A stretch of 64,000 bases of DNA. Source: a phage. A program made the translations under genes and the position numbers. Location: NCBI GenBank assembly GCA_021683455.1, contig GCA_021683455.1_3051.1, one strand, 5' to 3'. Below, one piece after another: positions 20,947-25,721 of the stretch (position 1 is its first letter; each line of letters opens with the position of its first letter). Under the pieces are notes generated by a model. It was not told where the DNA came from and searched no databases. It was given only the letters and a program-made list of their open reading frames with translations.

Positions 20947-20950
20947 CAAT

Positions 20951-20968
20951 GGGGACCGAAAGGTCCCC
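20951..20968. terminator. bidirectional terminator hairpin (GGGGACC-GAAA-GGTCCCC) between gene 54 and convergent early ORF
   Basis: 7-bp perfect GC stem, GAAA loop, T-run downstream. Confidence 0.6.
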
Positions 20969-20974
20969 ATATTT

Positions 20975-21265
20975 TTATTTACGGAATGAAATAAAAGCAG
21001 CAACTGAAGAAACAGAGGTTTCTTCAATATAAACCTCAATTTTTACCGGAGCTTCTGACTCAAATTTACCTGTTACTACACCTTGGAAAATACTTTCAGT
21101 CTGTTCTGGCTTTGAAAAATTTTCAGAAGGAAAAATTCCAAACTTTTTATCGGTTCCGAAAATTTTAATAAATTCATCATAAACTGCTTCATTGAAAGCG
21201 TTATCAGCGGGAATAACGCCCTCAACGACGAGTTCTTGACCTAAAAAGCGCAAAGAAGATTTCAT
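20975..21265 (-). CDS. hypothetical protein (alt.-2-like position)
   Basis: 96-aa ORF with its own early promoter and leader. Confidence 0.5.
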   Translation of the reverse strand: MKSSLRFLGQELVVEGVIPADNAFNEAVYDEFIKIFGTDKKFGIFPSENFSKPEQTESIFQGVVTGKFESEAPVKIEVYIEETSVSSVAAFISFRK

Positions 21266-21296: not shown

Positions 21297-21326
21297 ACTA
21301 TAACACAATACGAGGGACTTGTAAAC
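21297..21326 (-). promoter_or_regulatory. sigma70-like early promoter (GTTTAC-N17-TTATAG) for ORF 20975..21265
   Basis: Minus-strand GTTTACAAGTCCCTCGTATTGTGTTATAGT; near-identical copy upstream of alc at 36586..36615. Confidence 0.55.
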
Positions 21327-23383
21327 TACATTTTGAACTTTTTAGACATTCCGTTGATGTTAACCAAAGAAGCTAAGATTTGAGAAACTTCGCTTTCCTC
21401 TTCTTTTGATTCTTCTACAAGGAATTGATTAAATCTAGCCATTGGACGAACTTCTCCGGTTTCCATCAAATGGTCACCATCATATACCGATTCCTCTAAT
21501 TGTTCAGAAGGAGGAACAATCGTGCCTTCAATTAGATACTTATTATAAGCGGTTTCTTTCATCATGTACGTACTTACTTTATTAATCTTCAGTAAAATTC
21601 CACGTGGTAGAATAACTTCAGCTTCTGATGGAAATCCTGATAAATGACCTGGAACGATAACTTTGATTCGCTCAGCTCCTTTAATTACCATACCCACGCT
21701 AGTTTCAGCATCTTCATTAGCATATGTAGAATGACTACCCATATGCATCAAATCTTCTGCATCAACAGAACCTTCTCCTTCGCCAGAAAATACTGCGCCG
21801 GAATCATCTAGAGCCATATAGTTTTTACCATGCTCACCGAAGATATTTGGTTTAAGCGATGTGGATACGAAGTTCTTGAAATAGAACATTTTATTTTCAA
21901 TGTTATGACGCAAAGTTTTAAAGGTAACTTCTTGTCCACGGTAAAGTGTAGTTCCTGGAGGAAGAACTGAACCTTTAGCGAATGCAGAATCAAGCGTCTC
22001 AATATGTTTAATAGCTCGTTCCATATATTCTTCACGGGTAGAATCTGGTTTACCTAAAAGGAATGAGTTCATTTCAACATATGAATCTGCACAATAATCT
22101 TCAATTACATCAGATTCAGCCTGAGTTAATCCTTTTGGAGTTACTTCAGTACTTGCATATTCATATGCCTGAGCGGCAGATTCATCAATTAATTTATAAA
22201 TTCCATTCATTACAAATTGAATAATAGCTGTCTTTTCATCTGGTGTAGCTTTAGAACCTTTAACTAAATCATTGATAATTTTCTTAATAACATCAAAACT
22301 ATTAGAAATATTAATGTCAGCAAGATCGCTTAAAATTTTATCAGTTTTATAATCAAAGAATTCTTTATTCTTTAAATATTCTTGAGAACCTTGATATGTT
22401 ATATCGCTCTGCAACTTGATAGATGGATCACGTAAACGTGCATGGGCTAATGCAATATGATTTCGGAAACTTTCTAGTTCATAATCGTTAGATTTAAAAC
22501 GAGAAGCACTTCTCATACCACCGATAGCTCCTTTGCTAAAGTTTGAACCAATCTGGATAACCCCGGAGTTCATTGGTCCTTCTGCTTTATACACCGGAAC
22601 TTTAGATTCAAACTCTTGATATTTCTTAGCAGCGAAGCTATCGCCTTGAAGCGAAGCATCGACAGTAGAATATTGAGCTTGTGCTGCTAATCGACGACTA
22701 ATTTTAGTTTTCTGAATAACAGCTTGATCCGTACGCTTATCATTTTCTAAAGCAATAGAAGCAGCAACTGCGACAGCTTTAGGAACAGCATTACCTGTTT
22801 TAACATCTACATAAACATCACCGACCTTCGATTCAACTTTTGTGAATAGCTCTGTTGAAATAGGAGGTACACCTGGAATGTCTTCTAAATTGGCATTTTT
22901 ACGGTAAACCATAATATATGCATATTTCTTATCATAGTCCCAGATTTCCTTTAAAAGAACATATCGACCTGCTCCTTTAGTACGTACTAAGCGGTCAGCA
23001 ATAACTTGCATTTGACGAGCTGCGCCATTTGTTTTACTTTTTAGTACGCGGAATAGGCATGCATCAATTTTATACTGTTTCATTGTTTGAAGAGCAGTAT
23101 CAAAAACAGCATTAATGACGCCAATTGGATTTCCACCCAAGTTTTTAAGCTTAACTAACGATAATTTCTCGTTGACACCTATCATTACGATATGCATCAT
23201 TTTGTCGCCTGGCTTAACGTTTTTATTCGTATCACCACCAGAGGTGTATGTACAAAATCTAAATCCAGGAAGCACGCTTTCTTCACCGGCTTGAATAGCA
23301 AAAATTTGAGGTATTTTATGCTTAGGATTTAAGTTAACAACCGGCGCCGAAGCGCCGTCAAATAATTCTGTAATAAGTTCCAT
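21326..23383 (-). CDS. Alt-family ADP-ribosyltransferase, paralogue 2 (alt.-1 position)
   Basis: 685-aa ORF; N-terminus MELITELFD shared with the adjacent Alt gene; R-S-E ART signature (YRGQ, FVSTSL, EAEVILPRG). Confidence 0.8.
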   Translation of the reverse strand: MELITELFDGASAPVVNLNPKHKIPQIFAIQAGEESVLPGFRFCTYTSGGDTNKNVKPGDKMMHIVMIGVNEKLSLVKLKNLGGNPIGVINAVFDTALQTMKQYKIDACLFRVLKSKTNGAARQMQVIADRLVRTKGAGRYVLLKEIWDYDKKYAYIMVYRKNANLEDIPGVPPISTELFTKVESKVGDVYVDVKTGNAVPKAVAVAASIALENDKRTDQAVIQKTKISRRLAAQAQYSTVDASLQGDSFAAKKYQEFESKVPVYKAEGPMNSGVIQIGSNFSKGAIGGMRSASRFKSNDYELESFRNHIALAHARLRDPSIKLQSDITYQGSQEYLKNKEFFDYKTDKILSDLADINISNSFDVIKKIINDLVKGSKATPDEKTAIIQFVMNGIYKLIDESAAQAYEYASTEVTPKGLTQAESDVIEDYCADSYVEMNSFLLGKPDSTREEYMERAIKHIETLDSAFAKGSVLPPGTTLYRGQEVTFKTLRHNIENKMFYFKNFVSTSLKPNIFGEHGKNYMALDDSGAVFSGEGEGSVDAEDLMHMGSHSTYANEDAETSVGMVIKGAERIKVIVPGHLSGFPSEAEVILPRGILLKINKVSTYMMKETAYNKYLIEGTIVPPSEQLEESVYDGDHLMETGEVRPMARFNQFLVEESKEEESEVSQILASLVNINGMSKKFKM

Positions 23384-23386
23384 GAT

Positions 23387-25483
23387 TTATCCTTGAACGA
23401 ACTTGTAAGGCATGTTTGCAATATCTATGCAAGACGCAATAATTCCAAGAGATGATTCTACTTTTTGTTTAACATTTGATGAAACAAATGATGCAAAGTC
23501 AACTCTGTCTTCTATTTCAATATCACCTGTCATTGCAACTACTTCACCAGTTTCCATTAGACGGTCTCCGTCATAGATTATCGATTCGGTGAGCTCTTCC
23601 GTGGTCATAACTTCAGCTTGAATGAGTTTTGTATTATTAGATGTTGTTCCGTCATTATTAGAAGCATCAGTTATTTTATTAACTTTGACCATCAATCCAC
23701 GCGGTAGAATAACTTCAGCTTCTGTTGCTATTCCGAGACTTCCTGGATATACAACATTAACTTTATGAGCTCCATCAATTGCCCATCCTATTTGAACTTT
23801 AACGTATTCAGGATTTTCTTTATACGCTCTTATTTCGTTTGGATTAATAGTTATTCCTTCTTCATTTTTATCAACTGTTAATTCATTGCGAGCTTCTGGT
23901 TCTAAAAGACCAATACCAGCATGTGTGATTCCAAAACGTCCAAAAATGATAGGAGTTAAAGAAGTAGATACAAAATTTCTGAAGTAGAACACTTTATTTT
24001 TAACTAACGCTTCATATATAGGAGCAGTCATACTTTGAGCACGATAAACTGTAATGCCTTCTGGTATACGGTCACCATTTTCAAAAGCTGAATCTAAGTT
24101 ATTTATAGCAGATTCAATTTCTTTTTCATTCATTACATCATATCGTTCTGGATTGTAACGACCTAAAAGAAGATTATTGATGTCAGTATATCCTGAACCG
24201 CAATATTCTCTAATGCCACGCTTTTGTGATGGAGTATATTTAGAACCATCGCGTGCAATAGTAATATCAATCATTGGACCAGCACCAATTCCAGAAAAAC
24301 TGTAAATCATTCGTTTGAGGAATTTAGTTTTTGCTGCGTTCCAGGAATTTTTAGTTATTTCTTCCCAGACTTCATCTGATTGTCCTTTACGATTTTTATT
24401 ATGATTAGCAAGCCATTTATCTTTATAATCTTCAAAGAATTGATTTACAGCTGCTGCGTATTTCTCTAAACATTTTATTGAAGTAGTTGGTTCATTTTTA
24501 ATTGCATTAAAAATTACTTCTTTAATTTTTTCTGAAACTTCACCGACTTGACTCATTGGAAAGAATTTATAATCATAGTGAAGTTCATCTGCCGTTCCTT
24601 CAGCAATAATTTTTGCTGCCTTTGTTTTAGAAGCTAATGAATTAATTCCAATTTTCATTTCTTCTGCTTCGGGAATTAAAGGTGCAGTAGCTGGTTTATT
24701 AAAATTGGCTGCTGTAGATTCATACTTCTGGAATAATTCACTTTCAAATCTAGAAGATTCCAATGACTGACTTTGTGCAATTGCTCTACGGGAAATTTTA
24801 ACTTTAACGATTACAGCTTGGTCAGAACGTTTATCATTTTCTTGTGCAATAGATGCTGCAATTGCCTCATTTTTAGTTACTTGAGCTCCAGTATCTTTAT
24901 TGATATAAACATCACCGACCTTCGATTCAACTTTAGTAAAGAGCTCTGTACTAATTTCCGGAACTCCTGGAATGTCTTCTAGTGATACATTTTTGCGATG
25001 TATAAGAATATATGCATACTTTTTATCGTAATCCCAGAGTTCCTTAAGAAGGACGTATCTGCCACCTGAACGACTACGGATAAGTCTATCAGCAATAAGT
25101 TGAATTTGTCGAGCTTGACCGGCGGTTTTAGACTTAAGAATACGAAGCATGCAGGCATCAATTTTATATTGACGCATTGTTTGCATTGCAACAGTAAAAA
25201 CTGAATTGATATAATTAATCGGGCTTGGACCAAGACCTTTTAATTTAGCAATTGAACCTTTAGCAGTTAATGTAAAAGGAACAATATGCATCATTTTATC
25301 GCCCATCTTTAAATCGCGATTAGTATCACCTCCAGATGTATATGTACATAAACGAAAGCCTGGCTGTTCAATTGCATCATCAACATGAACTGAAAAAATT
25401 TGCGGTATTTTCTTCTTTGGATTTAAGTTTGTAATCGGAAGAGTAGTATCTTCGTCAAATAATTCTGTAATAAGTTCCATCAT
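23387..25483 (-). CDS. alt: Alt ADP-ribosyltransferase (packaged internal head protein)
   Basis: 698-aa ORF adjacent to gene 30; R-S-E ART signature (YRAQ, FVSTSL, EAEVILPRG); preceded by a TATAAATA late promoter. Confidence 0.8.
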   Translation of the reverse strand: MMELITELFDEDTTLPITNLNPKKKIPQIFSVHVDDAIEQPGFRLCTYTSGGDTNRDLKMGDKMMHIVPFTLTAKGSIAKLKGLGPSPINYINSVFTVAMQTMRQYKIDACMLRILKSKTAGQARQIQLIADRLIRSRSGGRYVLLKELWDYDKKYAYILIHRKNVSLEDIPGVPEISTELFTKVESKVGDVYINKDTGAQVTKNEAIAASIAQENDKRSDQAVIVKVKISRRAIAQSQSLESSRFESELFQKYESTAANFNKPATAPLIPEAEEMKIGINSLASKTKAAKIIAEGTADELHYDYKFFPMSQVGEVSEKIKEVIFNAIKNEPTTSIKCLEKYAAAVNQFFEDYKDKWLANHNKNRKGQSDEVWEEITKNSWNAAKTKFLKRMIYSFSGIGAGPMIDITIARDGSKYTPSQKRGIREYCGSGYTDINNLLLGRYNPERYDVMNEKEIESAINNLDSAFENGDRIPEGITVYRAQSMTAPIYEALVKNKVFYFRNFVSTSLTPIIFGRFGITHAGIGLLEPEARNELTVDKNEEGITINPNEIRAYKENPEYVKVQIGWAIDGAHKVNVVYPGSLGIATEAEVILPRGLMVKVNKITDASNNDGTTSNNTKLIQAEVMTTEELTESIIYDGDRLMETGEVVAMTGDIEIEDRVDFASFVSSNVKQKVESSLGIIASCIDIANMPYKFVQG

Positions 25484-25503: not shown

Positions 25504-25511
25504 TATTTATA
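25504..25511 (-). promoter_or_regulatory. late promoter TATAAATA (minus strand) upstream of alt
   Basis: Reverse complement of 25504..25511 is TATAAATA, about 20 nt upstream of the alt ATG. Confidence 0.55.
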
Positions 25512-25517
25512 AAATTA

Positions 25518-25533
25518 AAGGCCCGAAGGCCTT
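25518..25533 (-). terminator. stem-loop (AAGGCC-CGAA-GGCCTT) between small ORF and alt
   Basis: Perfect hairpin in the alt upstream gap. Confidence 0.45.
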
Positions 25534-25721
25534 TAATAATCTATTGGTAAGAGAGTACGATATATTTCAAACTTTGGACCTTTTTCATAAGCATCAAAAG
25601 TTTCTGTGAATTTATTATAAGCATATGCATCTATAAATTCGAGAATGACTTGTGATACAGAAGTAGAAACATCTCCACCTTCTTTTTGAGCAATGACAAT
25701 TGTTTCTAAGTAAGCTTTCAT
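25533..25721 (-). CDS. hypothetical protein
   Basis: 62-aa ORF, ATGA-type overlap with gene 30 stop. Confidence 0.4.
   Translation of the reverse strand: MKAYLETIVIAQKEGGDVSTSVSQVILEFIDAYAYNKFTETFDAYEKGPKFEIYRTLLPIDY

Follow-up and report, generated by a model that had tools for sequence, protein, structure and literature searches.

The window analysed here, a stretch of 64,000 nucleotides (nt) of phage DNA (GenBank assembly GCA_021683455.1, contig GCA_021683455.1_3051.1), carries two adjacent minus-strand genes of the Alt family of ADP-ribosyltransferases (ARTs). The locus is probably an ordinary two-gene alt locus of the Tevenvirinae, both products of which would be made late, packaged into the head, trimmed by gp21 and injected as arginine-specific mono-ADP-ribosyltransferases with different substrates. 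The tandem arrangement itself is already known, and it is the majority state among sequenced Tequatroviruses and annotated as such. What is added here is a mechanism for the deletion seen in T4, the mosaic make-up of the upstream gene, the clustering of the domains by genome or by position, the purifying selection on both genes and the gp21 sites present in both copies.

A tandem pair of Alt-family genes

The window is a T2/RB14-type Tequatrovirus segment, in which gene 48 and gene 54 (plus strand) are followed on the minus strand by alt.-3, two long open reading frames (ORFs), alt.1 and DNA ligase. A preliminary description made from the sequence alone had given the two ORFs as 685 and 698 amino acids (aa) long, and the ORF list agrees. 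The upstream ORF opens with ATGATG, however, and translation from the second ATG (25480) gives a protein of 697 aa beginning MELITELFD. This second ATG is most likely the true start, as it is so annotated in RB14 and T2, has the better spacing from a GAGG Shine-Dalgarno sequence and agrees with the processing numbering of T4 Alt (ITE-6). The two genes are:

23387..25480, minus strand, upstream alt gene; 697 aa from the second ATG (698 aa for the ORF from 25483)
21326..23383, minus strand, downstream alt paralog; 685 aa, named 'alt.-2' in RB14 and 'hypothetical protein T2_202' in T2

Their products are 41% identical over the full length (BLASTP, E = 2e-162). Both match the Pfam family PF03496 ADPrib_exo_Tox (downstream, E = 5.5e-20, 72 bits; upstream, E = 6.1e-38, 130.6 bits; cut-off 23.4 bits), and phrog_802, 'Alt-like RNA polymerase ADP-ribosyltransferase', spans residues 1-685 of the downstream protein (E = 6e-256) and 1-696 of the upstream protein (E = 2e-271), which bears out the earlier identification of two tandem, diverged Alt-family genes. 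Close homologs carry precomputed matches to PF26846 (Tevenvirinae_ADPRT) and PF03496. No NCBIfam model fits either protein. A sequence search of the PDB gave no match for the downstream copy and weak partial matches to ARTs for the upstream copy (E ~4e-4), with no solved Alt structure among them.

Position and both termini identify the upstream gene, whose product is 99% identical in aa to RB14 alt, as the T4 alt ortholog, but its central and catalytic cassette is a different one. Its position between DNA ligase/alt.1 and alt.-3/gene 54 is the same in T4, T2, RB14, AR1, SH7 and IME341. With T4 gpAlt, a head-packaged and injected NAD+--arginine ADP-ribosyltransferase of 682 aa, the upstream copy also shares the late promoter context, the ITE-6/LTE motifs and the R, STS and ExE residues. 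The downstream copy has the same architecture and motifs at 41-43% identity to gpAlt, but no detectable sequence similarity to it in the centre. Orthologs of the downstream copy are RB14 'alt.-2', T2_202, AR1_201 and SH7 gp188, all of 685 aa, 98-99% identical in aa, in the identical position and without material difference.

The 4.9 kb around the pair are 97-97.6% identical to phages KIT03, wV7, RB68, RB51 and RB14. Megablast returned 544 phage records with the region, at least 364 of which cover at least 80% of the two-gene block, and in tblastn the downstream protein was matched at 95% identity or more in 397 records, T2 included. The same block is present in T2, RB14, RB51, RB68, AR1 and wV7; RB14 annotates it as alt and alt.-2, and both genes carry the RefSeq label 'Alt-like RNA polymerase ADP-ribosyltransferase' in RB14, RB51, RB68, AR1, wV7 and SH7. 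The comparison with T-even references suggested in the preliminary description thus makes the arrangement ordinary, as the same two genes occur in hundreds of records, though without a documented function for the second copy. Nolan et al. (2006; PMC1524935) described T4 alt.-1/alt.-2 as paralogous to alt and a full-length alt duplicate in phage 44RR, and the RefSeq note for T4 calls alt.-1/alt.-2 'an old duplication of the first part of gene alt'; beyond that paper and such annotation notes, the literature searched gave no function, name or virion detection for a second Alt.

The two genes differ in how much they vary. The upstream gene is polymorphic among Tequatroviruses, with 293 records at least 95% identical to the allele of the window and 211 at 60-80%, a band that takes in the T4- and AR1-type alleles sampled. 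In phages that have it, the downstream gene is essentially monomorphic. Both are intact and under strong purifying selection: ratios of nonsynonymous to synonymous substitution (dN/dS, Nei-Gojobori, against RB14 and T2) are 0.07-0.08 for the upstream and 0.04 for the downstream gene, the latter at or below 0.06 in all four of its regions, the centre included.

Catalytic residues, probable head delivery and proposed targets

The full R-S-E signature had been reported for both copies, and this held when the residues were checked codon by codon and their invariance was judged in alignments of 17 and 13 Alt sequences; no catalytic residue has been lost. The positions are as follows:

24041..24043, minus strand, catalytic Arg R480 (YRAQ) of the upstream copy; codon CGT, invariant column
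23960..23968, minus strand, S-T-S 505-507 of the upstream copy; codon check, S505 and S507 invariant
23714..23722, minus strand, E-A-E 587-589 (ARTT motif), upstream copy; counterpart by alignment of E575-M-E577 in T4 Alt
21938..21940, minus strand, catalytic Arg R482 (YRGQ) of the downstream copy; codon check, invariant column
21857..21865, minus strand, S-T-S 507-509 of the downstream copy; codon check and alignment
21617..21625, minus strand, E-A-E 587-589, ARTT motif of the downstream copy; codon check and alignment

An ExE rather than a QxE on the ARTT loop goes with arginine specificity. The E577A mutant of T4 Alt is inactive (PMC11404850). Both copies of the window are apparently catalytically competent. 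The catalytic fold, the R, the S-T-S and the E-x-E are shared with the C3/VIP2/iota/CDTa/Vis toxins (PF03496); the latter are secreted by bacteria and have other delivery domains, whereas Alt is delivered from the capsid and has an N-domain specific to the Tevenvirinae (PF26846).

Each gene is likely to encode a protein of ~690 aa in four parts, namely a genome-specific N-domain (~1-238), a helical centre, an ART of the C3/VIP2/Vis type with R-S-ExE and a disordered C-terminal tail. Between the two copies, identity is 68% over the N-terminal residues 1-238, 21% by forced alignment over the centre (~170 residues), 36% over the ART and 41% over the tail. The first of these values agrees with the shared N-terminus noted before, as do the MELITELFD start and the ITE-6 processing/targeting motif (MELITE) present in both. 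The centres had been called essentially unrelated. As regards sequence this stands, since the central segments alone gave E = 3.4 in BLASTP and a probability of 0.4% in profile-profile comparison (hhalign), and no homology was detected by either; it does not necessarily hold for the fold. AlphaFold2 models, computed from shallow alignments of 13-17 sequences (predicted local distance difference test score, pLDDT, 74.7 and 75.8), gave for both copies an alpha/beta N-terminal domain (~11-235) whose secondary-structure elements come in the same order, an all-helical region, a predicted ART fold and a disordered tail, and the helix pattern of the two central regions is closely similar, which leans towards a shared fold. 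Extreme divergence and replacement are both candidate origins of the unlike centres.

Transcription of the pair can be considered from the signals at the two starts:

25504..25511, minus strand, late-promoter motif TATAAATA, 21-28 nt upstream of the alt start
23381..23400, minus strand, gene junction CAAGTTCGTTCAAGGATAAATCATG; TAA of the upstream gene, 3 nt (ATC) and ATG of the downstream gene, with an AAGGA Shine-Dalgarno sequence in the last codons of the upstream gene

The motif TATAAATA is the T4 late-promoter consensus, and none is found directly upstream of the downstream copy. The layout of the junction suggests co-transcription and possibly translational coupling, and both genes would be transcribed late from the single TATAAATA promoter ahead of the first.

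T4 Alt belongs to the prohead core, each head holding ~40 copies, and it is ejected together with the DNA (PMC5694885, PMC9026906). It is cut by gp21 at ITE-6 and at LTE-619, which removes 63 C-terminal residues, the sites having been mapped by mass spectrometry (PMC5694885, PMC9026906). As motifs, the same sites can be recognised in the window: both copies start with MELITE (ITE-6), and LTE-632 of the upstream and LEE-631 of the downstream copy align with LTE-619 and are followed in both by an invariant S-x-x-YDGDxLMETGE. The tail beyond this second site is the low-confidence part of both models (pLDDT <50). The predicted mature form of the downstream copy would comprise residues 7-631.

After ejection with the DNA, both enzymes would use NAD+ to mono-ADP-ribosylate arginines of host proteins in the first seconds of infection. 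The two Alts most likely act on different host proteins, because their central regions and the surface loops of their ARTs differ completely. The classical 'alteration' is the ADP-ribosylation of Arg265 of RNA polymerase alpha. For Alt of the T4 type this subunit is the candidate target; for the rest, the candidates are other proteins, of housekeeping or of anti-phage defence. T4 Alt contributes to escape from the defence system Mokosh type I, where it rescues plating, and the Alt of Bas37, a close relative, cannot substitute for it (preprint, 10.1101/2025.11.20.689424). This shows that sequence variation in Alt has functional consequences and that alleles are not equivalent, since one of the two rescues and the other does not. 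The central region may be a target-recognition module, a suggestion of the preliminary description that is plausible.

Several points weigh against this account of a late, injected pair with separate targets. For the downstream protein, no direct evidence of synthesis, packaging, processing or activity was found, and a virion proteome of SH7, a phage with two copies, reported one ADP-ribosylase, ORF 119150-121210, which is the upstream copy; this survey was shallow (14 proteins, 2 Alt peptides). The upstream gene itself contains another exact TATAAATA (24100-24107, minus strand), ~720 nt before the downstream start, which may or may not contribute to transcription of the downstream gene. The case for different targets draws on sequence divergence and on one preprint on alleles of the upstream gene, and the structural models on the shallow alignments given above. 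Finally, T4 and ~18% of the related records are without the second gene, so that a phage can do without it, on laboratory hosts at least.

What is known of Alt biology derives almost wholly from T4, the standard model phage, which by the comparison below has lost the second enzyme. T2, RB14, AR1 and hundreds of phages that are therapeutic candidates encode, and perhaps inject, a conserved second arginine ADP-ribosyltransferase, and the first enzyme also exists as mosaic alleles that are not interchangeable. If the targets do differ, a two-copy phage would have a broader injected repertoire for takeover or counter-defence. The second Alt is a cheap and well-defined candidate for screens of counter-defence or host takeover, because T4 Alt helps to evade Mokosh type I.

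A further reading, which we put forward tentatively, is that alt is a polymorphic-effector locus, in which the genome-specific N-domain for capsid delivery and both terminal propeptides are fixed, or homogenised from one tandem copy to the other, while effector cassettes (helical region and ART) are swapped between genera, gained or lost; the second Alt would then hit a different target, possibly in host defence, and T4 would be an unrepresentative model with a single effector. A constant virion-association part joined to an exchangeable injected effector is also the plan of polymorphic-toxin-like phage effectors, namely MuF-fused toxins and polyvalent proteins (PMC5512222, PMC9503650). Alt differs from these in being without a MuF domain and in having a single effector, and Iyer et al. 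(2017, 2022; PMC5512222, PMC9503650) state explicitly that Alt-family ARTs do not occur in true polyvalent proteins.

It is unlikely that the downstream protein is a functional ART that is not delivered from the capsid, acting instead late in the cell, as ModA/ModB do early, or serving mainly as a structural part of the prohead core. Such a role would fit the SH7 proteome, in which the upstream copy alone was reported, the lack of proteomic detection of the downstream protein in virions and the fact that no dedicated promoter was identified for its gene. The protein nevertheless keeps the whole N-domain (68% identical to that of its neighbour, and genome-specific). It also retains the MELITE propeptide and, at the place that corresponds to the cut in T4 Alt (LTE-619), an L-x-E site with a disordered tail behind it, and its gene sits in the presumed late transcription unit beside baseplate genes. 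Delivery of both copies with the DNA is thus the preferred reading.

Origin of the pair and the state in T4

T4 itself has two short genes in place of the downstream copy, and comparison with the window indicates how they arose. T4 alt.-1 (61 aa) and alt.-2 (67 aa) together are 96% identical in nt to the first 348 nt of the downstream gene (BLASTN). A 1-nt deletion in a run of A breaks the frame of the remnant, and the match resumes at the last codons of the gene and continues into the 3' flank. The two high-scoring segment pairs of the remnant against the window overlap on the 9-mer CTAAAAAGT, which is present twice in the window:

23036..23044, minus strand, 9-nt direct repeat CTAAAAAGT, first occurrence; at codons ~114-116 of the downstream gene, bounding the T4 deletion on the left
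21337..21345, minus strand, CTAAAAAGT, second occurrence; in the downstream gene's last codons, bounding the T4 deletion on the right

Because the segment pairs overlap on this 9-mer, and it is intact at both places in the window, T4 must have lost the ~1.7 kb between the repeats. The T4 arrangement is then the derived state, in which the second gene was lost by a frameshift and a deletion between 9-nt direct repeats, and alt.-1/alt.-2 fit better as the deletion remnant of a full-length paralog than as a partial duplication of alt. Of 499 records compared with a probe across the T4 junction, 91 matched it uninterrupted and the others matched its two halves separately, so that roughly four-fifths of the sequenced relatives keep the full second gene.

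These losses bear on the possibility that the downstream copy is a redundant duplicate heading for loss, an expendable back-up or a pseudo-enzyme. The frameshifted and truncated remnant of T4, the deletion in those 91 of the 499 related records and a single chimeric gene on one metagenomic contig would all be accounted for by it, and Alt is non-essential in T4 (PMC9026906). The selection values speak otherwise, the dN/dS of 0.04 being below that of the upstream gene and low in all four regions. The R, STS and ExE residues are invariant, 397 records have the gene at full length with at least 95% identity, and a positional ortholog has been kept in another genus, Dhakavirus, all of which makes redundancy improbable.

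The metagenomic contig (Logan SRR24155011, 65 kb, T4-like) has a single alt between alt.1 and alt.-3, with the first ~195 residues of the upstream type and the rest of the downstream type, and the switch lies at a 30-nt run that is identical between the paralogs. This suggests either unequal crossing-over or an assembly chimera, and no conclusion here relies on the contig. 'Split' Alt genes, with separate N-terminal and ART ORFs, were also seen among BFVD matches in Acinetobacter phages ZZ1 and Henu6 and in Citrobacter phage CF1, which suggests that the alt locus has been broken and rebuilt in several T4-like lineages.

The age of the pair can be judged against Dhakavirus. IME341 has the layout of the window (ligase-alt.1-Alt-Alt-alt.-3-gp54), and in the Dhakavirus pair (IME341/JS10) the gene order is the same and the downstream copies share the central module and the ART lineage; the N-domains differ, being genus-specific and 42-46% identical to those of the window. 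N-domains are 68% identical within the window and 66% within IME341, as against those 42-46% across genera. For the centre and the ART the order is reversed: the two downstream copies (window and IME341) are 45% and 57% identical, and upstream versus downstream copies 19-21% and 36-39%. N-domains therefore cluster by genome, whereas centre and ART cluster by position, a pattern that implies cassette exchange and/or concerted evolution; the N-domains may either co-evolve with their own capsid or be homogenised between neighbours.

The upstream gene carries more specific signs of exchange. Compared with T4 Alt, its product is 99% identical in aa at the N-terminus, 32% in the centre, 67% in the ART and 94% in the C-terminal tail, while against the upstream Alt of IME341 the centre is 65% and the ART 95% identical. 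By sliding-window identity, nt 1 to ~700 and ~1890 to the end of the gene are 96-99% identical to T4 alt, and between them lies the exchanged segment:

23636..24265, minus strand, exchanged cassette (ART domain, nt ~1216-1845 of the gene); 86-94% nt identity to the upstream Alt of IME341, 54-80% to T4 alt

This indicates that the upstream gene is a recombinant with a Dhakavirus-like catalytic cassette, the product of an exchange between genera inside one gene.

Third-codon-position identity in the shared N-domain is 52%, and the closest relative of the downstream copy of the window is the downstream copy of IME341. Because this identity is so low, and because IME341 has the same layout with that closest relative in it, the duplication is old and the pair predates the split of Tequatrovirus and Dhakavirus. 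Of the earlier proposal of an old duplication followed by divergence, the age is thus retained, with the 52% value and the Dhakavirus pair behind it; a simple in-place history is not, the upstream gene being recombinant.

Identity at the starts of the two genes had also been pointed out, and it is real. The 25-nt string quoted for it occurs exactly twice, at 23359 and 25456, and the identity runs for 28 nt from each ATG (ATGGAACTTATTACAGAATTATTTGACG). Another run, of 30 nt, is identical between the copies at codons ~183-192; when codon columns were shuffled, a run of at least 30 nt appeared in 72 of 5000 trials (~1.4%), and no such sharing of 5' ends is seen in the Dhakavirus pair. On these three counts the 28-nt run is only modestly beyond chance, and its candidacy as a special regulatory or conversion signature was rejected as weak.

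The simplest reading of the 28-nt identity would be that the gene was duplicated in place not long ago in this lineage and that the centre then diverged very fast. This could draw on the 28-nt and 30-nt runs and on N-domains that are more alike within a genome than between genera, but it is very improbable given the 52% third-position identity in the shared domain, a downstream centre and ART nearer to the Dhakavirus downstream copy (45%, 57%) than to the neighbour (21%, 36%), an upstream ART 95% identical to the Dhakavirus upstream copy and a Dhakavirus pair without an identical 5' run.

Neighbouring genes and minor signals

The remaining features flank the pair:

25533..25721, minus strand, alt.1, 62 aa; PF24647 'Phage_blade' (E = 1.7e-29), upstream neighbour
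25517..25534, minus strand, GC-rich hairpin AAAGGCCTTCGGGCCTTT followed by a T-rich tract; terminator-like, overlapping the alt.1 stop codon, read from the sequence
20975..21265, minus strand, alt.-3, 96 aa, DUF5498; PF17602 (E = 1.1e-61), next gene downstream

A scan for consensus terminators did not list the hairpin at 25517..25534. The alt.1 gene also adjoins alt in T4, T2, RB14, AR1, SH7 and Dhakavirus, and PF24647 is a recent Pfam family. The TATAAATA at 24100-24107 may be an internal late promoter or a chance match, the window having 15 matches to the motif against ~9 expected.

Ahead of alt.-3 there is a sigma-70/early-type promoter-like site (21325-21297, TTTACA-17-TATAGT with an upstream TG), and since it has such a site of its own, alt.-3 probably lies outside the late transcript unit of alt. 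Through C-terminal extension mutations of Alt.-3, T4 can escape the defence system CmdTAC (PMC11618068), so that a connection with counter-defence is already present in the neighbourhood of alt. Between the convergent gene 54 (plus strand) and alt.-3 (minus strand) lies a perfect 9-bp GC-rich hairpin (20949-20970) with a terminator score on both strands, which is probably a bidirectional terminator.

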